DNA from: an uncultured virus (IMG/VR IMGVR_UViG_3300006674_000076)
Taxonomy: Duplodnaviria; Heunggongvirae; Uroviricota; Caudoviricetes
Length of the DNA stretch: 64,000 nucleotides
Reading direction: 5' to 3' (one strand)
IMG/VR virus record: IMGVR_UViG_3300006674_000076
Coordinates: 1 to 64,000 of that record
The notes beneath the pieces were generated by a model that did not search any database, was not told the DNA's origin, and saw only the letters and a list, made by a program, of their open reading frames with translations. The translations under genes were made by a program, and so were the position numbers. Positions 9,312-54,841 of this stretch are shown piece by piece; within the stretch, counting starts at the first letter, position 1, and every line of letters starts with the position of its first letter.

Positions 9312-9425
9312 AAAAAAGGAAGGGGGCGGGTATCCCCCGCCCCATTGTGGAGGTGACACGTGCGGTGGGAGGGAGCACAAGGGAGGGAGGGATAGGCGAA
9401 CAGAAGCAGGGGTGGTTTGCTCCCC
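9312..9425 (-). ncRNA. candidate small RNA with C-rich anti-SD loops
   Basis: Minus-strand TGG-TATAAT (9440-9432), small hairpins with CCACCCC/TCCCTCCC/TCACCTC loops, GGGGCGGG/CCCGCCCC terminator plus T6. Confidence 0.55.
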
Positions 9426-9478
9426 ACAAACATTATACCACGAACATGTCGTATAATATAAACAAGGGAGGGAATGCG

Positions 9479-10390
9479 ATGGATTGTCAACAAGCAGTCA
9501 AACAAGTGTTACAAATGCTCGCAGGACAGCAAAACGTGTTAGTGGTTCCCCGTGGATTGGTGGATTTTGTCGGTTCTATAGAAGGCGCAATCCTGCTAAA
9601 CCAAATGCTGTATTGGAGTTCACGTACTGAAGATGGGGAGTTTTGGAAAACGTACGAACAATGGCGTGAAGAAACGTCGTTGTCACAATATCAGGTACGC
9701 AAATACGTGAAGCAGTTCCAAGACATGGGCTTTCTTGAGGTGTCATTCAAAAAGGAAAACGGCACGCCTGTGCTACATTACAAGTTGGATATTGACAAGC
9801 TACTACACAAAATAAGCGAGGTGTTAACTTCACAAGTTCGACCCTGTAAAAACTACAAGGTCGACCTTAAAAAAACTACAAGGTTGACCCTTAAAAAACT
9901 ACAAGGTCCTATATATATACATAGATTACAAACAAAGACTACAAACAAAAATATATGTACGCACAACGCAAATGAACAAAATTCACAAGTTCCACAAAAC
10001 GTGCCCCTTATTGAAGCACTTAGCTTAACACGTATTCCACAAAAACGAGCTGGTCGGGGTAAGGAGCAACCACCGAAGTTAGACGCAATCCAAAAAGACC
10101 GTTTTGAAGAGTTTTGGAAGCTGTATCCCCGTAAACGTAACAAGTACGACGCTATGCGAGCATGGGAGGTGATAGAGCCGGACAGTGAACTGTTTGAACA
10201 AATAATGTCCGGCTTGAGAAAAGCAGTGAATTCAAAAGAATGGAAGGAACAAGACGGGAGGTACATCCCTTATCCGGTAACGTGGTTAAGAAAATACCGG
10301 TGGTTGGATGAGTACACGGAAAACGAAGAACATTTTGACCGGTGGGAAGTGCTTTTAGCACAACGTAAACAAGGAGGGAAAACATTATGA
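9479..10390 (+). CDS. phage replication initiator / replisome organiser
   Basis: AILLNQMLYWS..FWKTYEQWREET wHTH-like N-terminus; FEEFWKLYPRK..YIPYPVTWL C-terminus; internal iterons. Confidence 0.82.
   Translation: MDCQQAVKQVLQMLAGQQNVLVVPRGLVDFVGSIEGAILLNQMLYWSSRTEDGEFWKTYEQWREETSLSQYQVRKYVKQFQDMGFLEVSFKKENGTPVLHYKLDIDKLLHKISEVLTSQVRPCKNYKVDLKKTTRLTLKKLQGPIYIHRLQTKTTNKNICTHNANEQNSQVPQNVPLIEALSLTRIPQKRAGRGKEQPPKLDAIQKDRFEEFWKLYPRKRNKYDAMRAWEVIEPDSELFEQIMSGLRKAVNSKEWKEQDGRYIPYPVTWLRKYRWLDEYTENEEHFDRWEVLLAQRKQGGKTL
9832..9960 (+). repeat. putative origin of module A: four 23-bp-period iterons plus AT-rich tract
   Basis: ACAAG(G/T)T(C/T)GACC..AAAAACT units at 9832, 9855, 9878 and a partial one at 9901; core AAGGTCGACCTT is palindromic. 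Confidence 0.8.
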
Positions 10391-11912: not shown

Positions 11913-12259
11913 AAATGGTAGATTTGGAAGGGCGTTTACTTGAGGCAAAAAGTGATATGAGCGAGTTCACGGTGTTGTTTGAGAATGACATTAAGTATGT
12001 TAGGCGTGAGAGGTTAGTCCCAGATGCTTATACTTGTTACGATAATGAGTGGGTCTTGCTAAAGATTAAGGACGTAACAATTGTTGTGGATTGGAGCAAG
12101 GATGAGCCACGGGCTGGGTTAAAGGTAACGTTTACCTCCAAACAAATGCAGAGTATCGTAACAATGCAAAGAACACAAGGGCTTGAGTTGAAGCCAACTA
12201 TAAGGTTCTTACTTGATGATGTTGGAGTGCACGAAAACGTTGTTGAGGTATTGGCATGA
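11909..12259 (+). CDS. hypothetical protein
   Basis: ATGA-coupled on both sides. Confidence 0.55.
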   Translation: MKMVDLEGRLLEAKSDMSEFTVLFENDIKYVRRERLVPDAYTCYDNEWVLLKIKDVTIVVDWSKDEPRAGLKVTFTSKQMQSIVTMQRTQGLELKPTIRFLLDDVGVHENVVEVLA

Positions 12260-13095
12260 ACAAAGAAGATTTGGAACAAAAAATGGAGCTTAGCAAAAAA
12301 CGTTTTGAACGCATGATGGAACTGCTACAAAACGCACCTGTGGTGGAGTACAAAATACTTGACCCGTCCATGTGCATTTGGGAGTACCGTCAATGTGAAA
12401 TATGTGGCAAGGAGGAGGTGATTGAAGAACCGGATTTGGGAGCACAAATAAAACGTATGCGGTATGACGTACGTGAATGTTACAAGACCGTTTATGGTAG
12501 AAAACTACTAAAGCAAAGCGGTCTACAAGGAGAGGAGGTGATGCACTCTTTTGAAAACGCTGTAGTAGACAATTACAATAGGGAGGTGATAGAAACACTG
12601 AGAAAATGGCAGCCGAACGGGGGGAGAGGTATAATCCTCTCCTCCCACCGCACAAAAACGAATCCACTTGGGAACGGAACTGGGAAGTCGTACATGTTAC
12701 ACGCTTTGACGAGAAAGCTATGTTTAGAAGGTTACACGTGTAGGTATGGCAGAACGGTAGACTTCCTTGCCGAACTAAAACGTGCATACGACAGCGACGA
12801 CGGTAGCGAATATGAGGTTACGCAGGCATATATTGACTGTGACGTGCTGCTATGGGATGACCTCGGTAAAGAAAACATACGTTCCGACTGGGCTCCGGAA
12901 CGTTTTTACTATGTCATTGACAGGCGGGTAACCTTAAAGAAACCAATGGTAATAAGTACAAACCTAACAGTAGCGGAGATAGAAGAACATTTTGGCAAAG
13001 ACAATTTTGGCCCAGCGATTGTCAGCAGATTGCTGGGGTCGTGTGATATACTTTACTTGGACGGTTACGATAGAAGGTTAACGCTGGATGCGTAA
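12256..13095 (+). CDS. DnaC/IstB-like AAA+ helicase loader
   Basis: Walker A GNGTGKS, Walker B LLWDDLGKE, ISTNL, SRL, D.R; N-terminal Cys cluster. Confidence 0.88.
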   Translation: MNKEDLEQKMELSKKRFERMMELLQNAPVVEYKILDPSMCIWEYRQCEICGKEEVIEEPDLGAQIKRMRYDVRECYKTVYGRKLLKQSGLQGEEVMHSFENAVVDNYNREVIETLRKWQPNGGRGIILSSHRTKTNPLGNGTGKSYMLHALTRKLCLEGYTCRYGRTVDFLAELKRAYDSDDGSEYEVTQAYIDCDVLLWDDLGKENIRSDWAPERFYYVIDRRVTLKKPMVISTNLTVAEIEEHFGKDNFGPAIVSRLLGSCDILYLDGYDRRLTLDA

Positions 13096-14601: not shown

Positions 14602-14835
14602 GTGCGAGAAGTTTTAGAGTTTGACATGTTATCTCACAGAAAGGATGAGGTAGATAGAATTATGAGCGATGACAAGTTTGATAGTATGGAAATTATAAAT
14701 AGAGAAAGGAAACAAGAGATAATGAAGAGACAGAGTGCGCACGATTATGTTTATTGTCCAGAATGTGGCGCGCCAGTAATTCACGAGAGCGGCTGTGTAG
14801 TGTGTCCGAGTTGTGGGTGGGGTATGTGTGGCTAA
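14602..14835 (+). CDS. small zinc-ribbon protein (start may be 14662)
   Basis: CPECG..HESGCVVCPSCGWGMCG. Confidence 0.6.
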   Translation: MREVLEFDMLSHRKDEVDRIMSDDKFDSMEIINRERKQEIMKRQSAHDYVYCPECGAPVIHESGCVVCPSCGWGMCG

Positions 14836-15766
14836 GCGACTAAGAGCTCCATTTACTTGGTATGGAGGAAAACATTTTATGGTTAAAAAACTCTTGCCTT
14901 TAATACCGAAACACCACACGTATGTGGAGGTGTTTGGTGGTGCTGCCAGCTTACTTTTAGCTAAAGATCCATCGCCAGTGGAGGTGTATAACGACATTGA
15001 CAGTGGGCTAGTTAACTTCTTTAGGGTGCTAAGGGATAAAAATAAGTTTCAGAAATTTTACGAGCAGGTCGTGCTAATGCCTTACTCCCGAGAGGAGTAC
15101 TATGAATGCCGGGAGACCTGGGACAAAGAAGAGGATGACGTGCAGATGGCAGTTAAATGGTTTGTGGTGGCAAGGCAGAGCTTTAGCGGCAATTTCGGCA
15201 GATCCTGGGGATATAGTGTAACAAGTTCAGTACGTGGAATGGCGAATAATATAAGCAAGTACTGGGGAGCCATAGACATGTTACCTGAGGTTGCTGAGAG
15301 GTTGTTACGGGTTCAGATAGAGCACAACGATTTTAGAAAAATTCTTAAGGCGTACGATACCGAAAACACCTTTTTTTACTTAGATCCGCCATATGTGCTA
15401 GATACACGAACCGAAGCTGTGTATCGTTACGAGATGGCTTTAGAAGACCATCAGGAGTTAGTGGATATGCTGCTACACATTACGGGTAAAGCAATGCTAT
15501 CGGGTTACGACCACGAAGTGTATAAGCCGTTAGAAGAAGCTGGGTGGACTAAATTGGTGTTTGAAGCTATGTGCATGGTTCCAGGAAGGACTAGAGCCAC
15601 GAAGTACATCTGTAATGACAGCAATAAGCATAAACTTAAGCGTAAAGAGTGTGTTTGGCTAAATTACGTTCCTGCTCCACATAAGCAGATGGAGCTGCTG
15701 GGCGTAAAGTACGGGACGGAAAACAATGTTAATCCAGGTAATGGCACCGAGACACAAGGTGAATAG
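14828..15766 (+). CDS. Dam-like (D12 class) N6-adenine DNA methyltransferase
   Basis: WYGGK, YVEVFGGAAS, EVYND, FYLDPPY, MLSGY. Confidence 0.9.
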   Translation: MAKRLRAPFTWYGGKHFMVKKLLPLIPKHHTYVEVFGGAASLLLAKDPSPVEVYNDIDSGLVNFFRVLRDKNKFQKFYEQVVLMPYSREEYYECRETWDKEEDDVQMAVKWFVVARQSFSGNFGRSWGYSVTSSVRGMANNISKYWGAIDMLPEVAERLLRVQIEHNDFRKILKAYDTENTFFYLDPPYVLDTRTEAVYRYEMALEDHQELVDMLLHITGKAMLSGYDHEVYKPLEEAGWTKLVFEAMCMVPGRTRATKYICNDSNKHKLKRKECVWLNYVPAPHKQMELLGVKYGTENNVNPGNGTETQGE

Positions 15767-38826: not shown

Positions 38827-39918
38827 TTAAAATGGAATGTCATCTGAATCTTCATCACCAAGTGCGGCGTTTACTTCTTTGATTATTTCGCTTGTGCTTT
38901 GAGTAGCTGTGGGTATTGAAGCTTGAGGCTCTGTTGATGCTACACCCATTCTCATTTTTAACGTTTCAATGATGCTTGATGCTTCTTGCATCGTAAGTTC
39001 GTTAAGACTGTTTTTGTTAAATCCATCTAAGAACTCATCAATGTAATCCTGATAGTAGTTTCCGTGAACTTGCTTGGCTAAGCTGACAATGTAGTTTACT
39101 TGTTTCGCCGAGGCTTGTCTTGTGTCTCCTTTTGGAATTTTAGCTTTAGAAGATGCTTTTACTGGTTTGGGCGATTCTTCATGTTTAACTTGAGCTTGCA
39201 ATGGGTTTATCTTGGCACTTGCAGTTATTATCGTTGGCTCTTCTGGAACAGTTTCTTCTGGCACTTCTGCTTCCTCTTCTTCTATGATTTCTCTTATTTC
39301 ATACGGAACTTCAATTGGAGTTTCATCTAAAGATGTTTCGTCAACTGCTGGCATCTCTTCAGCTGTATAAAGCTGTGAAAAATCTTCTGGAAACGCTTCA
39401 CGTAAGCACTGCACAACTGCAACCTTTCTTATCATCGTTGCTGGCATAGAAGACCAGTTAGCCATGGGTCTGCCATCTGGTAATCGCTTCATATATTCTC
39501 TTAAACTAACCGTAACCTCAAAAGGCACTTTCAAGTCTTTTCGGTATACTTTAGCCCAACCGCCAACAAGTTCTTCATCGTCTAACACCAATGTCCCCTT
39601 ACGGAATGTTGTTTCGTTACCTTTTCTAACAATTACTCCAGCCTCTAATCCATCAAAATTAGGATTTCTTGCCGCTCTCTTCATGAACGTATCTTTTCCC
39701 GTGATAATGCTTGCAGGTTGATTATCTTGATATTTCACAAGGTATGCTTCACGAATGAACGGGTTTAAGCGTTGATATTTGCAAATGTTCAGGAACATCA
39801 TTACTTCTTGGTCTGTAACTTTATCAGATTTGCCTGAAACGAGATACTTTTTTACGACCTCTGGTGTTAGGACAATTTCTCCACTGTCTGTCTTGTAACG
39901 CACAATTTCATTACTCAT
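38827..39918 (-). CDS. bet: Bet-family recombinase
   Basis: DQEVMMFLNICKYQRLNPF, LVGGWAKVYRKD, MPATMIRKVAVVQCLREAFP; acidic DDIPF tail. Confidence 0.9.
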   Translation of the reverse strand: MSNEIVRYKTDSGEIVLTPEVVKKYLVSGKSDKVTDQEVMMFLNICKYQRLNPFIREAYLVKYQDNQPASIITGKDTFMKRAARNPNFDGLEAGVIVRKGNETTFRKGTLVLDDEELVGGWAKVYRKDLKVPFEVTVSLREYMKRLPDGRPMANWSSMPATMIRKVAVVQCLREAFPEDFSQLYTAEEMPAVDETSLDETPIEVPYEIREIIEEEEAEVPEETVPEEPTIITASAKINPLQAQVKHEESPKPVKASSKAKIPKGDTRQASAKQVNYIVSLAKQVHGNYYQDYIDEFLDGFNKNSLNELTMQEASSIIETLKMRMGVASTEPQASIPTATQSTSEIIKEVNAALGDEDSDDIPF

Positions 39919-39938: not shown

Positions 39939-40544
39939 TTATATTATATCACTTTTTAACTTGAAACGCAAGCCATAAAACTCTTTCAAAGCATTGAATA
40001 TAGCTAAAGCCGTCTTATATTGGTTGTTTGGGTCAATTATGAACTCGAAATCCTGCGGATTGCTTAATGTTACTGGTTTTATATCAACTCCTTCACAGTT
40101 GCATGCCATAAGAAAATAAGTCTTTGCACCCGTAAAAACCTTATTCGGAATGCCAGTTTCTTCTACCAAATGCTTCAACACTGTTCCAGCCAAATAACGA
40201 GACCTTGTTGTCTTAACTCGAGTATAGACTATGGAAGAGCCTCTGTCTTCTTTTCGTTGTCCATTCCAGCGCACACCTATAGAAATTGCCACATCACAAT
40301 TTAATTTTCTGCAGAAAAAGGCTCTTTCAATGCCTTCCATAGCGAGATTTCTCTCTTTGCTTATGCATTCGTCTCCCTGTCTTGATAAAAAAACCTGATT
40401 GTAAGTAGCTCTCTCTATAAGCTCTTTCAAATACATGGCGATAGAGAATGTAATGTCTTTGCCATAAACCCTGCTTCCATCTGGCATTTGAACTCTACCG
40501 CCATATATTGTTGAACCAAATTGTGGGTCAATGAATATTTTCAT
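39939..40544 (-). CDS. Amidase_3-fold protein lacking catalytic residues
   Basis: KIFIDPQFG, GKDITF, DVAISIG, IKPVTLSNP align with the endolysins but H/E/H/E are replaced. Confidence 0.7.
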   Translation of the reverse strand: MKIFIDPQFGSTIYGGRVQMPDGSRVYGKDITFSIAMYLKELIERATYNQVFLSRQGDECISKERNLAMEGIERAFFCRKLNCDVAISIGVRWNGQRKEDRGSSIVYTRVKTTRSRYLAGTVLKHLVEETGIPNKVFTGAKTYFLMACNCEGVDIKPVTLSNPQDFEFIIDPNNQYKTALAIFNALKEFYGLRFKLKSDII

Positions 40545-40986
40545 GTTTAACACCTTCTTTAAATGAATTTACTACTGCTCTAATAATGTTTAATAGCGTT
40601 TTGTTACCGTAATACTCAAAGATATTTTTGTCTCTATGATATTTGCCTAATCCAAGTCTTTCGAATGTTGATAGAACGTGTTCTTTTTCATGTTCATATT
40701 TTTTATACTGCCTTTTTGAGCATACGAAATTAACAAAATCGTCAGCATCAAACATTACACGTTTAAAACCACCTTTCTTTACACGTTTTGTCGGTATACT
40801 TTGTTTGCTCAGCAATGGACTATCTTCAAACAACGCATATAACGGATATTTGACGTAACGAGACCTAATGCTTTCTAATGTGAACAGCATACCAATTATA
40901 TATATTGCGTCTAATCCGAAAGCATTCGACAATTCATTCACAACTGGAACTATACCATAAAAAATGCTTTTCTGAACGTATCTCAT
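40528..40986 (-). CDS. hypothetical protein
   Basis: Coupled in minus-strand operon. Confidence 0.55.
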   Translation of the reverse strand: MRYVQKSIFYGIVPVVNELSNAFGLDAIYIIGMLFTLESIRSRYVKYPLYALFEDSPLLSKQSIPTKRVKKGGFKRVMFDADDFVNFVCSKRQYKKYEHEKEHVLSTFERLGLGKYHRDKNIFEYYGNKTLLNIIRAVVNSFKEGVKHENIH

Positions 40987-41393
40987 TAATATCTACTCCT
41001 TTCTTCGTTTACAGTCTTAACAATGTCATCAGAGTATTTCTCAAGCGTTTGAATAGCAAGATAAATATCAACATTTTCATCAAACAAGAGATGGAATGGG
41101 AAGTTATTTTCAGCTATATCGTTTACCTTTACTTCTATCGTTGCCATTTTGTTGTTTAAGTGCAGTATTGTGCATTTAACATTGTAACTGCCAACTTCAT
41201 CAAACAAAAGTATTTTGCCTTGTTTACTGCAAATGTTTTTGATGTAAGTTTTGTCTGGTTTCTCTTTAAATCGTAGCTTCAGCGTTCCTTTCATGTCATC
41301 TGTAAGAAAATTCTTAACGTTGATGAAAACAAATTCGCCTACTTCGTTTGTCTTTTTCTTAAAAACCTCGCTCGGTATGCAGTATTCTATCAT
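40986..41393 (-). CDS. hypothetical protein
   Basis: GGAGGTG RBS; downstream of perfect promoter. Confidence 0.6.
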   Translation of the reverse strand: MIEYCIPSEVFKKKTNEVGEFVFINVKNFLTDDMKGTLKLRFKEKPDKTYIKNICSKQGKILLFDEVGSYNVKCTILHLNNKMATIEVKVNDIAENNFPFHLLFDENVDIYLAIQTLEKYSDDIVKTVNEERSRY

Positions 41394-41412
41394 TTGTATC
41401 ACCTCCAACATC

Positions 41413-41451
41413 ATTATAACATGTTTATCACACAATGTCAAGTGTTATAAT
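41413..41451. promoter_or_regulatory. overlapping divergent promoters
   Basis: Minus: TTGACA(41441-36)-N17-TATAAT(41418-13); plus: TGT-TATAAT 41446-41451. Confidence 0.8.
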
Positions 41452-41457
41452 GAAAAT

Positions 41458-42159
41458 ATGGAAAACGAATTAATACATGTAAGCGTATCGTCATTGCTAT
41501 CTGGCTGTCCCAGATACATACTTTGGCATGCGGTAAATCCAACCGAAGACAAAAGCTTTGATTTGTCATTCGGAACTCTTGTGCATTTATCTATAAGCGA
41601 ACACGGGAAATCAGGAGAAAAAGCCATCGATGAGAAGATTGTGGAACAGTCCATTTCAACTGTGCTCCCAGAATGGCAAAAAGCTGGAGCATACAATCAA
41701 TTGTTTGAAACTGTAAAAACACTTACACAAGCGGCACTCGGCTATTTGGAGGTAAACGATTATATCGGGAAGGCACAATATGAAGTGCCAGTGATAGAAA
41801 CCATAGAGAACATTGACATAAGAGGCATAGCAGACGTTGTTGGTAACAACCACGTCATAGACTGGAAAACAGGAAGTTATATAAACAAGAAACACAAAAT
41901 ACAAGTAGCGATATACTGCTACCTCTTATCTAAGCACGGTCTTATTTCAATTCCTTGTCAAGGAAGTATCGTGTATATATACGACACAATCAAACAAGGA
42001 TTTCCCACAGTAGTTGATTTTGCGGTTGACGAAGAAAGTATTGAGCTCGTGGATACGTATATAACTTCTTTGCTGAAACTAATTAACGAACAAGGAGACA
42101 TTCCAAGACAGGGAGATAATTGTAGGTTCTGCCCTTATAAGAAGTTGTGCTTCGCTTAA
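41458..42159 (+). CDS. PD-(D/E)XK Cas4/RecB-like exonuclease
   Basis: CPRY, FGTLVH, GIAD, DWKTG, QVAIY, CRFCPYKKLC. Confidence 0.85.
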   Translation: MENELIHVSVSSLLSGCPRYILWHAVNPTEDKSFDLSFGTLVHLSISEHGKSGEKAIDEKIVEQSISTVLPEWQKAGAYNQLFETVKTLTQAALGYLEVNDYIGKAQYEVPVIETIENIDIRGIADVVGNNHVIDWKTGSYINKKHKIQVAIYCYLLSKHGLISIPCQGSIVYIYDTIKQGFPTVVDFAVDEESIELVDTYITSLLKLINEQGDIPRQGDNCRFCPYKKLCFA

Positions 42160-42161
42160 AG

Positions 42162-42297
42162 TTATCCACAAAGTTTTCCACAAGTTATCCACAGAGTTAT
42201 CCACAGGCACTATATAGGAATTTCCTAAGCTCATTATAGTTTTCCACAGTTTCCACAGCACTACTACTACTAATATATATATTTTATTTATTTAATT
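42162..42297 (+). promoter_or_regulatory. oriC-like element: six DnaA boxes, DnaA-trios, AT-rich tract
   Basis: TTATCCACA 42162, 42185, 42197; TTTTCCACA 42174, 42240; GTTTCCACA 42249; GCA; (CTA)4 42261-42272; AT tract. Confidence 0.85.
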
Positions 42298-42424
42298 ACG
42301 TATATAAGGAAAGAAAAACAAAGAATAAGATAAGAGTAACAATATAAGGTGTTCAAAACGAAAAAAAAAAATACAAAAATACTTTACTTCATTCTTAAAA
42401 TATGTTATAATTTAACTTAAAGAC

Positions 42425-43201
42425 ATGAATAAGTTGTTTTGTGGTGATAATATAGAAATTACACAAACTCTTCCTTTAGAAAGTATTGATTTGATTTACA
42501 TTGACCCTCCTTTCTTTACAAACAGGAATTATAAAGGTTTAGTTGAACAACGTGAAGAAACAGGTTTTGTAGATAAATGGAAAGGCGGTATTGACCATTA
42601 TATTCGATGGCTTAAAAAAAGAGTAGAAGCTATGTATCCGTTACTAAAAAACAGCGGTTCGTTCTATTTGCACTGCGATTGGCATGCTAACGGATACATA
42701 AGGATAATGCTGGACCAAATATTCGGATACAAAAATTTTCAAAATGAGATAATTTGGCATTATGGTCTTGGTGGAAGCTCTCCTAAACGCTTCTCGAGAA
42801 AACACGATACGATTTTGTTCTACACTAAAACAAACGATTATAAATTTTATCCACATATGGTTCCAGCATCTTCACAAAAAATGAAAGGACAGCTTAAAAA
42901 GGTTGATGACGTGTGGGATATTCCATCTATAAATAACATGGCTAAAGAACGTGTTGGTTACCCAACACAAAAACCAGAAGCGCTTTTAGAGAGGATTATA
43001 AAGGCATCATCTGATGAAGAAGATGTGGTGGCAGATTTCTTTTGTGGCAGTGGGACAACGCTTGTGGTTGCACAAAGATTAAATAGAAAATGGATAGGAG
43101 TTGATGTTTCATCACACGCTGTTTCTTTGACTCAAAAGAGACTTGAGGAAGAGTGCGGGGTTAGAAAAGGGCTTGACTTCGAAGTTATAGGTTTAGCGTA
43201 A
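42425..43201 (+). CDS. N6/N4 DNA methyltransferase (beta class)
   Basis: IYIDPPF, YPTQKPEALLERII, DFFCGSGTT. Confidence 0.92.
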   Translation: MNKLFCGDNIEITQTLPLESIDLIYIDPPFFTNRNYKGLVEQREETGFVDKWKGGIDHYIRWLKKRVEAMYPLLKNSGSFYLHCDWHANGYIRIMLDQIFGYKNFQNEIIWHYGLGGSSPKRFSRKHDTILFYTKTNDYKFYPHMVPASSQKMKGQLKKVDDVWDIPSINNMAKERVGYPTQKPEALLERIIKASSDEEDVVADFFCGSGTTLVVAQRLNRKWIGVDVSSHAVSLTQKRLEEECGVRKGLDFEVIGLA

Positions 43202-43285
43202 GATGTGTTATAATGTAAGTGTGTTAAAAAATAGAAAAAGGAGATGAAAGAAAATGGAATTTAAGAAGATTGTTGGTGAGAGCCT

Positions 43286-43495
43286 ATGTTAAATGTTCTG
43301 TTAGCCCTGATTATAGTTTCCCTTTGGCTTGGACTTTGCATTGTTGGTGTTGTAGGTTGGATTTATTTGAGTTACGTGATTTGGACTGTGCAGTGGGAAA
43401 ACATTACCACAGGTTTAATTTTGTTGGTGGTGATAACCGTCTTTTGTCTTGCTCTGTATTTATGGAGCGTGTTACAAAGGAGGGGAAATAAATGA
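43286..43495 (+). CDS. small membrane protein
   Basis: Two hydrophobic segments; the best RBS precedes an out-of-frame ATG at 43254, so start uncertain. Confidence 0.5.
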   Translation: MLNVLLALIIVSLWLGLCIVGVVGWIYLSYVIWTVQWENITTGLILLVVITVFCLALYLWSVLQRRGNK

Positions 43496-44592
43496 GCATG
43501 ACTGGAAAAATGACTATTCAGAAACATGAGATTTCGTGGATTGTTGAGAGCGGACTGCCATTTATTAGTAAATCTCCATTTGATTGGACGCACAACTTCA
43601 TAGTTACTGGCGATGGCAAGGAATTTAAGGTTATAGCGAGTAATCAGAACTGCTATGCCGAATTCAAAGGAACTTATCAAGGAGACCCTGTTTTGTTCGC
43701 TGTGAATGGAACTATGTTCAGCCAAGTGATAACTAAAGAGGAAGCTGACACATTAGATATCTTGGTTTACGATGAAGAAATTATTTTAAAACGAGATAGG
43801 CGTAAAATAAAGTTGGCTACTGACGAAATTCCAATAGAATTGCTACCAGAGAACGAAGGTGAAATGGAGCCAATAGATATATTTGAGCTTAAGCATGCTG
43901 TCGATTGTGTTCAAAGTTGTGTAGCACCTGCTAAAACGTCTTTGTATGAGCAGTATAAAGGCATTGTATTTGATACTCTTGATGACAAATTAACGCTTGT
44001 AGCTACTGACACGGTGAAAATGAGCGTGTATAAAATGGACGTTCCATTTAACAACAAGGTTATAGTTCCATCTAAGCCTCTTGCAAGCGCAGTTAAGGTA
44101 TTACAGAAATTCAAAGGCGGTTGTAGAATAGGCGTTGTTGGAGAAACGCTTGTATTAAAGAACGAATACTGCAGATTTGTGTTCCCATCTTACGATACCA
44201 TGTTCATTCAATGGGCATCTGTTATTAAACATCATATGTCTGAAGTTACGGGTTGGATAGAAGTATCTACCTACGATTTTGTAAGGGCACTTGATAGAGT
44301 GAAAGTGCTATCTAACACGATGTTTAAGTATTATCCCGAGTTTGTGCCTGGAGCTTCTTCACTGTTCTTAAAGATTGAAGGTGATGTAATCTACAGTGAA
44401 AGATTAGAAGCGACAATTACAGGTAATGTCATTCCATTCAAAGCAGAGCCTTCAGCGTTATATGACATTGTTGCACCAATAAAAGAAGACAGGTTAGAAA
44501 TTGGCGTTGAAGCAAACACTGGAGAAGCGATAGTGATTAGACCCAAGGGCAGTGAAAAACAGATGGCATTTTGTGGGTTAGCCACTTATTAG
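43492..44592 (+). CDS. dnaN: DNA polymerase III beta-clamp homolog (divergent)
   Basis: 366 aa; G..F....LTLVATDT.KM, VIVPSK.L, F.RAL.RV.VLS, IVIRP ending. Confidence 0.78.
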   Translation: MSMTGKMTIQKHEISWIVESGLPFISKSPFDWTHNFIVTGDGKEFKVIASNQNCYAEFKGTYQGDPVLFAVNGTMFSQVITKEEADTLDILVYDEEIILKRDRRKIKLATDEIPIELLPENEGEMEPIDIFELKHAVDCVQSCVAPAKTSLYEQYKGIVFDTLDDKLTLVATDTVKMSVYKMDVPFNNKVIVPSKPLASAVKVLQKFKGGCRIGVVGETLVLKNEYCRFVFPSYDTMFIQWASVIKHHMSEVTGWIEVSTYDFVRALDRVKVLSNTMFKYYPEFVPGASSLFLKIEGDVIYSERLEATITGNVIPFKAEPSALYDIVAPIKEDRLEIGVEANTGEAIVIRPKGSEKQMAFCGLATY

Positions 44593-47627: not shown

Positions 47628-47757
47628 GCTTTTTTAACAGCTTTTTTATGTTGCTTTTTTATCACTTTTTTTAGCCTTTTTTAGAATGCTTTTTTATCCG
47701 CTTTTTTTAACGTCCTTTTTTATGTCCTTTTTTAAGCTCTTTTTTAAGCTCTTTTTA
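47628..47757. repeat. array of 11 C-T(5-7)-A tracts, about 12-bp period
   Basis: Tract starts 47630, 642, 655, 666, 677, 690, 702, 716, 728, 740, 752. Confidence 0.85.
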
Positions 47758-47998
47758 TGTTCCAAAACATTTAGCCGTCAAGATTTTATATAACCAAACA
47801 TTCGCACCTTCAAAATATTTTGCTTGTCTAACAATCTAACAGACAAACAAAATATCCCAAAAAGATGCCAGAGAAAAAAAATATTTTATGTTTCTAAATG
47901 TTTGTGTCTCTCACGATGTCCACCTTCCTTTATATGGTTTTACGGTTATATTATACCATGAAAAAAGCATGAAACATGGGCATACATTTGTATACCTA

Positions 47999-49475: not shown

Positions 49476-49756
49476 TAAGAATTTGAGAAGCTGGGACATT
49501 CTTCAGTGTCTCAGCTTCTCTTTTTTATCGCTTCACACATTCCATAAAATAACTTATCTTAGGTAATATGTTTTAATTTATTAATTTAATTATTAATAAT
49601 AATATGTATTCTTATTCTATTCTTTAACTTCTTTAATATCTTCCTTATATTCTTTACTCTTAACTATTAATATATCTTAGAATATATAAAGCTTTGTCTT
49701 ATTCTACATCTGTAGAATGAAGAAAAAGAAAAAAGATAAGGCTTGAAGAATTTACC

Positions 49757-49990
49757 ATTTTTAAGCGCTTTTTTATGTTTTTTTTAAAATCCTTTTTTAA
49801 TTTTCTTTTTTTTATCCTTTTTTAACTGCCTTTTTTTATCTTTTTTTTTACCTTTTTTAAGTGCCTTTTTTAAGTGCCTTTTTTTGTTAAGCCTATGTTA
49901 AGCCAATGTTAAGAGATTCAGGCCTCCGATTGTTAAGCCAAAGTTAAGAACGTTAAGCCAATGTTAAGGCATGGTTAAAAACATGTTAAA
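49757..49990. repeat. second T-tract array followed by nine GTTAA(G/A) repeats at about 11-bp period
   Basis: T tracts 49758-49885; GTTAAG/A at 49886, 897, 908, 932, 943, 952, 963, 974, 985. Confidence 0.85.
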
Positions 49991-50218
49991 ATTCTGGCAT
50001 GCCTTAACATAAATATTAAATAGGCCTCCAGGCCTGTTTATACCTATATTATACCACAGTTTAAGGCCTAAGTGTTAAATTAATATTAAGCGTGCTAACT
50101 GGGTTATAAAATTGAATGATNCTAAATTATANATTAAACGATTCAAAATAGCCTGTATGCTCAAAAGTGGTATACANANAANNACCTAAAAAGTTAACAC
50201 TGGCTTAACACAAAAGTG

Positions 50219-50247: not shown

Positions 50248-50299
50248 ATAGTTAGGTCATCTGAAGATGACCAAAAATAAAAAAAGGAAGGTGGAGGCA

Positions 50300-50641
50300 G
50301 TGAGTAACAAGCAAAAAGTAGGAGTTAGGTGGCTTGATTATGTCGGCTTCTTCGAGCCTGCATTTTACAAGGATTGTCACATTCAAGGCATTAAAGCTGA
50401 GGCAGAAGCCATTAATAAGTGCATTGTAACTGTGTCGATCTTTTGCACGATCTGGCTTGAGAACGGATGCGACATAAATCGCTGGATTAGTTATAATGTG
50501 AAAAGTGAGCTCGACACTGTGCCACTTAGCATAGATGAGTTCTACGCACTTAGGCCTGAGCACTTCATTACGCTGGTACAGCAAAATTATTATCCCGTGA
50601 CTGCATTTATGCAGATATATAAGGAAGGTGATTTGGCATGA
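50300..50641 (+). CDS. hypothetical protein
   Basis: AAGGAAGGTGGAGG RBS, GTG start. Confidence 0.6.
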   Translation: MSNKQKVGVRWLDYVGFFEPAFYKDCHIQGIKAEAEAINKCIVTVSIFCTIWLENGCDINRWISYNVKSELDTVPLSIDEFYALRPEHFITLVQQNYYPVTAFMQIYKEGDLA

Positions 50642-50805: not shown

Positions 50806-51559
50806 CAGTTAAACTGCTATTATGGAAGGTGCACCTAACACGGTGCACCTTCTTTATTGTGTAAATGAGCGCATTATAACCGAAGTCTAAACCCAAGTCT
50901 ATAACTGGAATTAAAGTGGTATACTTTTGTTAACCTGTGGAAAGCCCCCCCGTTAAAAAAGTTATCCACAGCCGCTCGTCTACTTCCCTCTCGTAAATTT
51001 TAGGTAAAAATCCGATTTAAGGCATTTTAACGAATTTACGATACCGAAATTGTAAAATTAGGCATTCTAGATATATTTGTGAGTAAATTATCATGAATAT
51101 CGTCAAAACGCAAAATACACGAAAAGTGGGTATGGAAAAATCAATGTTTCTTGGCACTGATTTTTAGTGAAAACAGGGTTTTAAGATTTAAGTGAAAAGA
51201 GTTTGAAAATCGTTTTTGAGCTATTACTAAGATAAACAATAGAAGATAAGAGTAACATATTAAAGATAAGAAGAACATATTCTTCTTCTTTTTCTTTTTT
51301 TAACTTAAAATATATAATTAAAGAAAAGAAAGAAGATATTCCTCTTATTCTTATCTTTTTATTTTTAAATATATATAATTAAAATAAAAGAAATAAGATA
51401 ATCTTCTTCTTATTCTTATAATTAATTAATAATTAAAAAAAAGAAAAGAAGAATATATTAATTAATTAATATAAGGTTCTAAAGAAATATATATTAAAAT
51501 ATATATGTTCTTTGGTTTTTAATTAATAAATAATACTTAAGATAAGTAGGAGGTAAAAT

Positions 51560-51898
51560 ATGGACTTATTCTTTAGTTTAAATACAGTAGAAGATAAAAA
51601 CAAAGAGATAGAAATGTTACTTATAAACAACGTAGAGAATTTTTTCATTAAATTAAAAGCTGGAAAGCTTAAAAAAGAAGATTTAAGTAACATAGCGTCA
51701 TTGTTTAGTTTAACAGAATTAGAAAGAGGATTGTTATTGTTAGAATATTACAGCTTCTTGGGAATTAAATTCTTCAATCGTTATTTTGGAAAATTAATAT
51801 ACGTAAACGTTTCAGACAGAAAACTATCTGAAGAGACGAAAAACAGAATAAGAGAGATTTGTATTAAAAACTGTCCTGAAATAAAAGATGAGATGTAA
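51560..51898 (+). CDS. hypothetical protein
   Basis: AGGAGGT RBS after AT-rich tract. Confidence 0.6.
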   Translation: MDLFFSLNTVEDKNKEIEMLLINNVENFFIKLKAGKLKKEDLSNIASLFSLTELERGLLLLEYYSFLGIKFFNRYFGKLIYVNVSDRKLSEETKNRIREICIKNCPEIKDEM

Positions 51899-52656: not shown

Positions 52657-53232
52657 ATGTTTATCGTATTTGAAGGAATAGATGGTTCAGGGAAAACAAC
52701 GACAGCAAAAATTGTTACCGACATGCTTGTAGAGATGGGAGTTCCTGCCATTTATACTTATGAGCCGTATTTCTACAAAGACATCATTAAAAATTATGTT
52801 CACGATTACATTTTAGCTACTGCATTGTTCAGTGCAGACCGAATCAGACATGTAAAAGAAGTGATAAAGCCAGCACTTGATAAAGGAGAATGGGTTATTT
52901 GTGATAGATACGCTGAATCCACTTGGGTATACGAATATTACTGTGTATTAGGTGCAGATGAAGAAATAGTTAAGAATTTCATTGAAGCCACAGCATTAAT
53001 AAAGCCAGATGTTGAGTTTTTGTTTGACATAGACCCACAAATAGCTTTAACACGCAAAAATGGAGACATGTTTGAGAATCTAACAGTGCTGTCTAATGCC
53101 AGATTTGGCTATATGGAATCGCCTTTGTATGCAAAACGCAGGTATGTAATTTATGCAGACGATTTATACGATGCTGTAAGTAAAGTATTGAACACGTTGA
53201 AAGCCGAAATTGAGGAAGTAATAGATGGCTAA
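52657..53232 (+). CDS. tmk: thymidylate (dTMP) kinase
   Basis: FIVFEGIDGSGKTT, EP, LF.ADR..H, VICDRY..S..Y, PD..F.FD. Confidence 0.9.
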   Translation: MFIVFEGIDGSGKTTTAKIVTDMLVEMGVPAIYTYEPYFYKDIIKNYVHDYILATALFSADRIRHVKEVIKPALDKGEWVICDRYAESTWVYEYYCVLGADEEIVKNFIEATALIKPDVEFLFDIDPQIALTRKNGDMFENLTVLSNARFGYMESPLYAKRRYVIYADDLYDAVSKVLNTLKAEIEEVIDG

Positions 53233-54138
53233 AAGGCTACGTTCACCAATTANGTGGTTTGGAGGAAAAGGAAACATGGTTGCTAAATTATTGCCGTTAA
53301 TTCCGAAGCACAAAATATATGTTGAACCATTTGGTGGAGCCGCCAATCTTTTAATAGCGAAAGAACCTTCTCCTATTGAGATTTATAACGACTTAGATAG
53401 CGGGTTAGTTAATTTCTTTAGAGTGTTGAGAGATAAAGAAAAGTTCAGACAGTTTTATGAGCAAGTGTGTCTAATTCCTTATTCACGTGAAGAGTTTTAC
53501 TATTGCAGAGATGCTTGGGAAAAAGAAGAAGATGATGTTATGCGAGCAGTCAAATGGTTTGTAGCGGCGAGACAATCTTTTAGCGGCGTATTTGGTCAAG
53601 GGTGGAGTTTCATCGTAACACATACTGTTAGAGGAATGCCATCAACTACAAGTGGATGGATAAGTGCTATAGAATTATTGCCACAGGTTTGCGATAGGCT
53701 ATTTAGAGTTCAAATAGAACATAAAGATTTCAGAGAAATAATTACAGCATATGACACAAAAGANACATTTTTTACCTCGACCCGCCATACGTTCCATCTA
53801 CAAGGTCTGGCGGCAAATACAATCATGAAATGTCAATAAAAGACCATGAAGAATTAGTTAAAATGTTATTAAAAATTAAAGGCAAAGCCATGTTATCTGG
53901 CTATGACAACGAAATATATAATAAATTAGAGCGCAACGGTTGGTATAAGTTGTGTTTTGATGTTGTTTGTAGCGCGGCTGGCAGAACACGATATACCAAT
54001 TTGAAAGGAAATGGTTCTGGAATAGAGAACCAGCGTCGCACCGAATGTGTTTGGTTAAGTCCAAACTGTGAAACCATACCCAAAGAAACCAAGCAGTTAA
54101 CACTTATTGAAGANTTTNCNNATAATGAAACAAGTTAA
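53225..54138 (+). pseudogene. Dam-like methyltransferase split by a 1-nt frameshift (or sequencing error)
   Basis: T6 at 53768-53773 where T7 would restore FFYLDPPY as in 14828..15766. Confidence 0.75.
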
Positions 54139-54841
54139 CATTCCAAAGCAACGAAAAATAGAGTTTGACTTAAGGATTGCGTTAGACCCGCAGACAATCT
54201 TAAGACTGTTTCAATCCACACCCTTATTACAAGACTATTGGCGTGTTTTAGAACGTCAAGAAGTGCAAATTGTTAGTTCTGGAGACTACTGGAAGCTATA
54301 TTTTCCCTACTTGAACAAGTATTCTTTGGTATCTACAGTGTTTTTCAACGCTTATTCCATAGATAGAACCAGTTATTCGGCACATGCCGCAGGCTGGCTT
54401 TACTATGCAGGCTTAGTTTGGTGTTGTAAAAGAGACGATTTTTGGGAAAGATTTAATAAAACAGCGCCGAAATTAGATAAAGTGATGCGAAATTTNCACT
54501 TTTACGACGATGCTGAATGGGATTTAGTTAAAAACAGAGTTGCTGATTTATCTTTATTGTGGCTTGCAACGTCAATAAATAATGGTAAAGTGCCTTGGAA
54601 ATCAAGAACAATGGGTAAATTGATACATATATCAAGACCCAATTTGATTTATTACTTGTTAATACGCACTGGAATTGCGAAAGTATTATGGATACATTCC
54701 AGAGAACACACAATTTACTTGCAAATAAATGAGGATTTAGATGAAGATTTGTGGGTAGATATCATTGAGCTTAATGTAAAAGGGCTTAATGCATTAAGAG
54801 TTGGTAAGCGATACAAGGGCATGGTGTATAATATAAAGTAG
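54125..54841 (+). CDS. hypothetical protein
   Basis: 238-aa ORF in operon. Confidence 0.55.
   Translation: MKQVNIPKQRKIEFDLRIALDPQTILRLFQSTPLLQDYWRVLERQEVQIVSSGDYWKLYFPYLNKYSLVSTVFFNAYSIDRTSYSAHAAGWLYYAGLVWCCKRDDFWERFNKTAPKLDKVMRNXHFYDDAEWDLVKNRVADLSLLWLATSINNGKVPWKSRTMGKLIHISRPNLIYYLLIRTGIAKVLWIHSREHTIYLQINEDLDEDLWVDIIELNVKGLNALRVGKRYKGMVYNIK

Follow-up and report, generated by a model that had tools for sequence, protein, structure and literature searches.

Here we report a DnaA-box/DnaA-trio element in the genome of an uncultured phage of anaerobic digesters (IMG/VR record IMGVR_UViG_3300006674_000076; Caudoviricetes) that is laid out like the replication origin (oriC) of a bacterial chromosome. 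The element occupies positions 42162-42352 of the window, i.e. the whole stretch of DNA analysed, which is the first 64 kb of the 75,921-bp linear virus contig. With a probability of roughly 0.55, we interpret it as a phage-borne, chromosome-style replication origin that would be fired by the DnaA protein of the host. The phage probably starts replication with host DnaA because the element has a complete unwinding layout and the phage unit that carries it has no recognisable initiator gene. A preliminary description of the region had proposed either initiation with host DnaA in the manner of a minichromosome or a DnaA sink that blocks host initiation; as far as sequence goes, this proposal is upheld, the role of a sensor or sink being unlikely.

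The contig consists of three related phage units arranged head-to-tail in tandem, as seen by self-comparison and annotation. What the preliminary description had called module B is a whole phage unit (unit B, 38802-75921), one of the three.

Anatomy of the element

The first DnaA box lies 2 nt behind the stop codon of a nuclease gene. It opens a co-oriented array of four boxes (42162-42205) with start-to-start distances of 12, 11 and 12 bp, which is followed by a 34-bp spacer, two abutting boxes, a GCA spacer, four DnaA-trios and an AT-rich tract (Table 1). Relative to the proximal pair, the array boxes lie at -78, -66, -55 and -43. Four co-oriented boxes at 11-12-bp spacing, abutting boxes at 42240 and 42249, GCA, (CTA)4 and an AT tract had all been read from the sequence before, and each of these parts was recovered. 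The plus strand of the trios reads TACT three times and thus has the form TnnT, that of the DnaD recognition element (DRE) in B. subtilis (PMC10201434). By A + T content, the tract behind the trios, a candidate DNA unwinding element, is within the top 1.1% of the 80-bp windows of unit B, and the 60 bp after the trios have 87% A + T.

Counted over the whole window, DnaA boxes are about as many as expected by chance (22 with up to one mismatch, 19.3 expected). Their clustering is non-random, with five such boxes in 100 bp compared with a maximum of two in 200 first-order Markov shuffles of the 75.9-kb contig.

Match to bacterial chromosomal origins

The basal unwinding system of chromosomal origins has been searched for with explicit rules, namely a DnaA box with up to two mismatches, an optional tandem second box (up to four mismatches, within 3 bp), a spacer to the first trio of up to 16 bp, most commonly 13, and at least three trios of the form 3'-NAN-5', with GAT preferred (PMC8287927). 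The first box of the phage pair, TTTTCCACA at 42240-42248, has one mismatch to TTATCCACA; the second box, GTTTCCACA at 42249-42257, has two and follows with a gap of 0. Between the first box and the first trio, the spacer measures 12 bp (42249-42260), and 3'-GAT-5' is present four times, where three is the minimum. The setting is not that of a chromosomal oriC, which lies on a bacterial chromosome beside dnaA/dnaN: the element is on a virus contig without a Bac_DnaA match, among phage neighbours and near a phage-specific clamp gene.

A pattern derived from the geometry of the element, TCCACA-N2-5-TCCACA-N2-6-CTACTACTA, was used to scan a 596-Gb genome collection. It occurred at at least 120 bacterial loci from many phyla, compared with about five chance matches predicted by uniform-base arithmetic. 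DnaA and/or DnaN were among the two longest open reading frames (ORFs) in 35 of the first 40 loci checked (misses: L031, L042, L047, L052, L056). The chromosomal order is dnaA-element-dnaN on one strand, and the polarity is the same as that of element-then-clamp in the phage. Among the matches listed, upstream box and first trio were 13 nt apart in 67 of 120 chromosomal loci and 12 nt, the phage value, in 49.

At the box pair, the string TTTTCCACAGTTTCCACA is also present in chromosomal origins (e.g. L025 and L095). The resemblance extends to the upstream array. The oriC of a Lachnospiraceae metagenome-assembled genome has upstream boxes at -77, -66, -54 and -43 and the same 34-bp spacer length. 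Spacer length and array are reproduced in the chromosomal loci L024 and L067, the box positions -55 and -43 are common to several further chromosomal origins, and at least three co-oriented upstream boxes are present in 14 of 80 chromosomal loci. The spacer sequences of the phage and the chromosomal loci have nothing in common; the likeness is architectural and not due to recent copying from these genomes. Judged by its sequence, the layout of the element matches chromosomal basal unwinding elements in every measurable respect. The box-box-spacer-trio-AT arrangement had been equated with the chromosomal layout in the preliminary description, which agrees with all the sequence rules of PMC8287927 and with the position of the pattern matches beside dnaA/dnaN.

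Conservation and mobility

The element was found between the same nuclease and clamp genes in seven contigs, six from one metagenome (including that of the window) and one, L172, from another. Compared with L172, the nuclease gene has a nucleotide identity of 66.6%, the clamp gene of 57.6% and the intergenic region of 90%, and a 93-nt core (box pair, spacer, trios and the first 60 nt of the AT tract) is 100% identical. A fully identical core despite diverged flanks points to very strong constraint or recent exchange of a cassette, and both imply a functional, portable unit. The box/trio layout beside the clamp gene is thus kept in relatives even at 58-67% identity of the flanking genes.

The box pair is invariant in all seven contigs. 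Among the relatives, there are two box polymorphisms, both at the degenerate box position 3, and two polymorphic sites within the 34-bp spacer. Six contigs have four copies of CTA and one has three, L172 has three upstream boxes instead of four, and in the L003/L007 haplotype the sequence of the AT tract has been replaced yet is still AT-rich.

Twenty public runs, which come from 15 studies with labels such as digester, biogas fermenter and wastewater, contain all or part of the stretch, and 11 of these runs have at least half of its sampled words. The element is covered by contigs of four studies, one of which has a high-depth contig where it is joined to a different upstream sequence. Plasmid records yielded partial matches to the box array only, the best of which covers 37% of the query.

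A misassembly in which reads of the host oriC were joined into a phage contig, an error that the preliminary description had allowed for, can for practical purposes be dismissed. The tandem of related units is unusual and may represent a mixed-strain path, which would fit such an artefact, but the junctions from the nuclease stop codon through the element to the clamp operon recur in seven contigs from two metagenomes, and the occurrence in the 20 runs and in contigs of four studies also contradicts it. Moreover, the contig has no dnaA by a Bac_DnaA search, which was positive in 13 of 14 control genomes, and the adjacent clamp gene is not a cellular dnaN.

Occurrence in other viruses

The box-pair/trio pattern was detected in 26 further viral contigs, in whose fetched flanks no DnaA or DnaN was found with hidden Markov models built from chromosomal loci. 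Thirteen of the 26 contigs (about 8 distinct elements) have at least three co-oriented upstream boxes, typically at -43, -55 and -66. A Pfam search with 73 ORFs of 16 viral loci identified Microviridae capsid and Rep proteins, an SU10-type capsid, a siphovirus tail protein, endolysins and a Prim-Pol; because capsid, tail, endolysin and Rep genes are present, these loci are genuine viruses.

In four gokushovirus genomes of about 4.7 kb (Microviridae; L148, L149, L163, L168) and in the GenBank gokushovirus KT264804 (L176 1700-1880), the gap that follows the replication-protein gene has the full architecture, with 4-5 phased boxes and a box pair as well as a GC spacer, (CTA)4-6 and an AT tract. 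The pattern and at least three co-oriented upstream boxes were also present in unrelated viral contigs of 12-162 kb from other metagenomes (L141/L146/L164, L147, L152, L157, L160, L161, L170). Lactococcus phage 949, which is matched by part of the array, was rejected, as it has only two boxes and no trios.

Initiation genes of unit B and its siblings

Searches with Pfam, PHROGs and NCBIfam revealed no recognisable initiator, loader, helicase, primase, polymerase or integrase in unit B, and its 13-14 unassigned ORFs showed no initiator-like family even at E-values of up to 5 (Pfam) and up to 1 (NCBIfam). Look-ups in the Atlas for a relative of h14 and for h11, a family with 14 unnamed relatives, returned no usable match. 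In keeping with the preliminary description, no genuine Rep or initiator was found in unit B by Pfam, NCBIfam, PHROGs, one fold of low confidence and the two Atlas look-ups, with about 13 ORFs without family (ORFans) remaining. Sibling unit A, to which the lambda-type initiation parts had been assigned, encodes an O/DnaD-like initiator and a DnaC-like loader.

A further sibling, unit C, was seen in two contigs, 000793 (locus L020) and L173, the latter from another metagenome. It has RecT, amidase, h1, nuclease, clamp (30% identity) and the post-clamp ORF (43%) in common with unit B. In both C-type contigs, nuclease and clamp genes are separated by only 65 bp without a box cluster. Both also have iterons and encode a primase-helicase of 883 aa (CHC2 zinc finger, DUF927, Cch helix-turn-helix). 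In L020 (10640-11050), the primase-helicase gene is followed by a palindrome with an inverted pair of perfect DnaA boxes, behind which TGGAGTAAGG iterons (six or more) occur in both orientations; probably, this region is the origin of unit C, with DnaA as a helper. The primase-helicase was absent from all five B-type records searched (a search without positive control). To judge from the gene content of a small sample (seven B-type and two C-type contigs), the element and the initiator genes are alternative states within one phage group.

The clamp gene

A DnaN homologue about 1.2 kb downstream of the element, as the preliminary description had it, is encoded at 43492-44592 and has the predicted fold of a beta clamp. 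It is highly divergent. Pfam DNA_pol3_beta_2 matches the central domain only (32.1 bits, cut-off 27), phrog_947 matches residues 35-355 (5.5e-17), and the score against TIGR00663 (5.1e-10) is under the cut-off, so that the protein is not an equivalog of cellular DnaN. The fold predicted with AlphaFold2 (predicted local distance difference test, pLDDT, 93.7), from an alignment of mostly distant, cellular-type sequences, has B. subtilis DnaN (4tr6_A) as its best Foldseek match, with a template modelling (TM) score of 0.91 and 17% identity. It thus has both the three-domain fold and the profile match of the beta sliding clamp family. The closer relatives among 1.84 billion representatives were only P0003 (43%) and P0004 (31%); none was found in 50,697 deposited phage records, and a word-index search returned only the clamp itself.

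Because element and dnaN-type gene follow each other on one strand in the chromosomal order, the region might be an inert relic, i.e. a captured oriC-dnaN fragment of a host in which boxes and trios are decaying passengers. We consider this very improbable. The clamp has diverged to 15-21% identity with the cellular-type sequences of the alignment (A4), yet the non-coding element is intact, and its core is completely identical in genomes whose flanking genes are not. Furthermore, clamp and element are not one inherited block, because unit C has the clamp without the element.

Proposed mechanism

If the element is an origin, host DnaA-ATP would fill the four phased boxes and the abutting pair, and the DnaA oligomer, oriented by the co-directional boxes, would grow along the bottom strand over its four 3'-GAT-5' trios and open the adjacent AT tract. 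The host loading system would then place the host helicase (in a Bacillota host via DnaD, DnaB and DnaI, with the top-strand TnnT motifs available to DnaD), and the host replisome would copy the phage DNA. Negative supercoiling may be supplied by the rightward promoter past the AT tract and by read-through from the nuclease gene, which would parallel dnaA-to-dnaN transcription across chromosomal origins. RecT and the nuclease could turn theta products into concatemers for packaging by the terminase. The phage clamp, encoded just downstream like chromosomal dnaN, would probably feed or deregulate the host-driven initiation; the manner is speculative, and clamps might be supplied to the host replisome on many phage copies or might draw off clamp-bound DnaA regulators. 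DnaA binding, unwinding, helicase loading and origin use are what we infer for the element from its sequence.

The same boxes may instead form a DnaA sensor or sink. As a sensor, they would tie the early rightward operon (methyltransferase, clamp) to DnaA-ATP; as a sink, acting like datA or the DnaA-box clusters of B. subtilis, amplified copies would titrate DnaA and block host initiation. A promoter-like site that could drive the clamp operon lies 110 bp past the trios and points rightward, away from the AT tract, and six boxes per genome copy would titrate DnaA regardless of any other role. T5-like phages also keep eight DnaA boxes, in a region that is not thought to be an origin (bioRxiv 10.1101/866236). 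Nevertheless, regulation or titration needs neither trios at the exact chromosomal distance nor an AT tract, and precisely these parts are 100% identical across divergent genomes and present in seven of seven contigs. The boxes are 130-250 bp upstream of the promoter-like site, with no overlap, and the L003/L007 haplotype keeps the element although its promoter region has been replaced. Since a sensor or sink would also leave unit B without a recognisable means of initiation, we regard it as unlikely.

Several observations weigh against an origin fired by host DnaA. Firing of chromosomal oriC is restricted to roughly one event per cell cycle, and B. subtilis copes poorly with additional DnaA-box DNA; a lytic phage would need to overcome this control. 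The proximal spacer of 3 nt belongs to a minority class (nine of 120 chromosomal loci, compared with 4 nt in 109, among the matches listed). Viruses with the same element can encode replication proteins (Rep in Microviridae, Prim-Pol in L142), so the element need not replace an initiator. The contig may be a mixed-strain assembly path, with unit B bounded by gene order only. A skew switch at about 42.27 kb had been suggested as a check, and a local GC-skew minimum does lie near 42 kb; it is uninformative and not counted as evidence because it follows the orientation of the genes, like a second dip at 46-48 kb. Finally, about 13 ORFans of unit B have no family match, and h14 (244 aa, 54107-54841, containing Ns), whose family was folded from four sequences, gave a pLDDT of 50 and weak matches (best Z-score 5.7), some of them to winged-helix proteins.

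Other origin-like DNA in unit B also belongs on this side. Phased CTTTTTTA tracts, about 10-11 per array and with a period of 12-13 bp, form two arrays (47629-47760 and 49768-49885) that lie 250-350 bp upstream of strong promoter-like sites (TTGACA-17-TATAAT type) and are, within the contig, confined to unit B. The arrays may serve as promoter elements of curved DNA, for protein binding or as repeated units of unwinding. Iteron-like GTTAAGCC repeats occupy 49886-50209 (five exact and three near, mostly at 11-bp spacing, two inverted); they lie behind the second array and ahead of the promoter of a 124-aa gene without assignment (50267-50641), and are candidate operators or a candidate second origin. 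Two regions are more AT-rich than the tract of the element: 49531-49663 (up to 88.7%) and 51286-51549 (up to 92.5%). The latter falls in the most AT-rich stretch of unit B (51230-51560; 92.5% A + T in 80 bp), which has a 59-nt direct repeat in three copies and a number of long inverted repeats that are imperfect. About 300 bp before these repeats is a second small DnaA-box site, an inverted pair that resembles the unit C palindrome with its two perfect boxes beside iterons.

At the origins of P1 (oriR), pSC101 and lambda, DnaA only assists. The element could likewise be an auxiliary DnaA site, with a hidden phage initiator acting at the GTTAAGCC repeats (49.9 kb) or at the AT-rich repeats (51.3 kb). 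The iteron-like repeats, the phased T-tracts, the AT-rich repeats and the inverted box pair would all suit an iteron/Rep-type origin, as would the similar pair beside the primase-helicase iterons of unit C, the ORFans without family and the viruses that pair the element with their own Rep or primase. However, the Pfam, PHROGs and NCBIfam searches, the one low-confidence fold and the two Atlas look-ups gave no initiator-like family or fold for unit B. Homologues of the repeat-adjacent ORFans h8 and h10 are encoded by unit A, a unit with an initiator of its own; both T-tract arrays, being upstream of strong promoter-like sites, may be just curved-DNA promoter elements; and a full unwinding module with trios exceeds the single auxiliary boxes of known Rep-dependent origins. 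A hidden initiator therefore appears rather doubtful, and host DnaA is preferred as the initiator.

Neighbouring genes and the contig

The flanks of the element are phage genes, as the preliminary description had noted from the Cas4-like nuclease and the methyltransferase. The true start of the nuclease, which ends at 42159, is probably near 41458, as in 233-aa relatives. The N4/N6 methyltransferase gene (42425-43201) is missing in the contigs 000793 and 000128, and L172 has only a 3' remnant; the gap between element and clamp gene is about 430 bp in the two contigs without it. From this distribution, it is a dispensable insert between element and clamp gene. At the place of the small hydrophobic protein that precedes the clamp, L172 has a different hydrophobic ORF of 76 aa. 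The 174-aa ORFan always comes next after the clamp gene.

RecT is the first of the leftward early genes of unit B and has 54% amino-acid identity with that of unit C. Adjoining it among these genes is an N-acetylmuramoyl-L-alanine amidase (Amidase_3; 39939-40553, minus strand), which is conserved in unit C and distinct from the SLH-domain endolysin of the lysis cassette.

Table 1. Features of the element, its neighbourhood and the contig
Feature	Position	Strand	Remarks
DnaA box 1, TTATCCACA	42162-42170	+	0 mismatches
DnaA box 2, TTTTCCACA	42174-42182	+	1 mismatch to TTATCCACA
DnaA box 3, TTATCCACA	42185-42193	+	0 mismatches
DnaA box 4, TTATCCACA	42197-42205	+	0 mismatches
34-bp spacer	42206-42239		Small palindrome AGGAA-T-TTCCT
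Proximal box pair, first, TTTTCCACA	42240-42248	+	1 mismatch
Proximal box pair, second, GTTTCCACA	42249-42257	+	2 mismatches; abuts first (gap 0)
GCA spacer	42258-42260		Proximal box to first trio
(CTA)4	42261-42272	+	Four 3'-GAT-5' DnaA-trios on the minus strand
AT-rich tract	42273-42352		Candidate DNA unwinding element; 82.5% A + T
Sigma-70-type promoter-like site	42383-42411	+	TTTACT-17-TATAAT with TG; 10/12 matches, consensus match only
Second small DnaA-box site	50936-50970		Inverted pair CTGTGGAAA ... AGTTATCCACAG
RecT-family single-strand annealing protein	38827-39918	-	Pfam RecT 7.4e-44; phrog_2760 3.5e-63
PD-(D/E)XK / Cas4-like nuclease	41251-42159	+	Pfam PDDEXK_1 2.1e-17; Cas_Cas4 5.8e-09
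N4/N6 DNA methyltransferase	42425-43201	+	Pfam N6_N4_Mtase 1.8e-55
Hydrophobic small protein, 69 aa	43286-43495	+	Overlaps start of clamp gene; no family in Pfam or PHROGs
DnaN-like beta sliding clamp, 366 aa	43492-44592	+	Profile and fold match; highly divergent
ORFan, 174 aa	44607-45131	+	43% identical to post-clamp ORF of unit C; no family in Pfam or NCBIfam
Unit A replication-initiation (O/DnaD-like) protein	9347-10390		phrog_270 6.6e-34
Unit A DnaC-like loader	12256-13095		phrog_50 2.5e-37
Unit X, lysis end	1-2508
Unit A	2509-38801
Unit B	38802-75921		Breaks off inside own holin gene

The late genes of units A and B are 81-97% identical and their early regions differ. Similar, even convergent, chains of units are present in further contigs from the same metagenome (G001, G002), and the tandem X-A-B may be a real array or an assembler path through mixed co-occurring strains of a circularly permuted phage. 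No integrase was found among the ORFs scanned (the late region of unit A, 18.6-37.7 kb, was outside the scan). The recognisable DNA-metabolism genes of unit B encode RecT, the Cas4-like nuclease, two methyltransferases (one split), the clamp, a metallophosphoesterase, SurE, thymidylate kinase, RusA and a PAPS-reductase-like protein, and are followed by terminase, structural and lysis genes. The split gene, a Dam-type methyltransferase, consists of overlapping ORFs (53225-53839 and 53830-54138), compared with a single 317-aa gene in unit A (14813-15766), and is due to a frameshift or sequencing error; Ns are present nearby (54110-54120 and within 54107-54841) and also at 50122-50185.

Past the window, the tail-fibre region of unit B (L175 12450-15900; contig 70.4-73.9 kb) has tandem repeats of about 125-135 nt with 80-93% identity and encodes a beta-propeller-repeat protein. 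The region is unlike that of unit A, which probably reflects variation in host range. A search for the host with the clamp alignment gave no match in genome contigs; the large terminase gave a lone 28%-identical match in one of 399 scored genomes of one class and weak matches in two of five further genomes. The SLH-domain endolysins and the habitat labels loosely suggest an S-layer-bearing member of the Bacillota from digesters as the host.

Significance and comparison with known systems

If the element is used as proposed, it would be a natural exception to the replicon rule that each mobile element brings its own initiator, and the only origin-specific contribution of the virus would be cis-acting DNA that mimics the origin logic of the host. 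Phage replication would be tied directly to the DnaA-ATP cycle of the host, which would bear on the timing of infection and on competition with the chromosome for DnaA. The element would also be a natural system in which to test the DnaA-trio mechanism away from chromosomes, and a ready-made, compact and probably broad-host vector origin for uncultured or hard-to-transform anaerobes. Three interchangeable initiation modules in one phage group would show how such modules are exchanged, and finding the full architecture in Microviridae as well as in other viral contigs suggests that the phenomenon is more widespread and has for the most part not been described. We tentatively propose, with some doubt, that certain phages may have dropped their own initiator and replicate as natural minichromosomes. 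The compact oriC cassette would be a mobile origin module that, within one phage group, is exchanged for modules of initiator genes (O/DnaD-like and DnaC-like in unit A, primase-helicase in unit C); unrelated viruses, 4.7-kb gokushoviruses among them, would have acquired it independently, and the clamp would help the phage to escape once-per-cycle control by DnaA.

The nearest functional counterparts would be oriC minichromosomes, which are laboratory plasmids driven by oriC alone. If our reading holds, both depend entirely on host DnaA and the host loading machinery and have no Rep of their own; minichromosomes are artificial, whereas the phage would be a natural, packaged 37-kb virus with recombination and clamp genes. 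The origins of P1 (oriR), pSC101, F and lambda are Rep-dependent, with iterons, an own initiator and DnaA as a helper, and have no DnaA-trio unwinding module. They are also parts of mobile elements that recruit host DnaA by DnaA boxes, but phage unit B has no recognisable initiator and a complete unwinding module. Clusters of the datA type, which titrate or inactivate DnaA, likewise have several high-affinity boxes outside the chromosomal origin; unlike the phage element, they have neither trios nor an unwinding tract.

Among phages, T5-like phages have a conserved cluster of eight DnaA boxes in the injection-stop region, which is likened to oriC and proposed to act as an injection stop, and its authors argue against a role in replication (bioRxiv 10.1101/866236). 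Part of the array found here matched T5-like phages by BLAST; the boxes of those phages are, however, paired in inverted repeats, and the sections of that preprint on the cluster mention no trios. For the 499-kb megaphage G, a single sentence reports a software-predicted 'OriC' with DnaA boxes, spacer, DnaA-trio and AT-rich region (PMC12484599). This Ori-Finder-type prediction resembles our element, although the passage is without an analysis of conservation, geometry or context. Beyond it, no paper found in one paper collection describes a conserved basal unwinding element of a phage, and none found there pairs 'Microviridae' with 'DnaA box'.

The closest structural parallel is the basal unwinding system of bacterial oriC, e.g. 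the incC boxes 6/7 together with the DnaA-trios of B. subtilis (Pelliciari 2021; PMC8287927). The element differs from it in being phage-borne, in having no dnaA gene, a clamp distant from cellular DnaN and a proximal spacer of 3 instead of the usual 4 nt. It shares with it the tandem co-oriented boxes, the short spacer, at least three GAT trios on the bottom strand and the AT tract, and also the phased boxes upstream and a dnaN-type gene downstream on the same strand.

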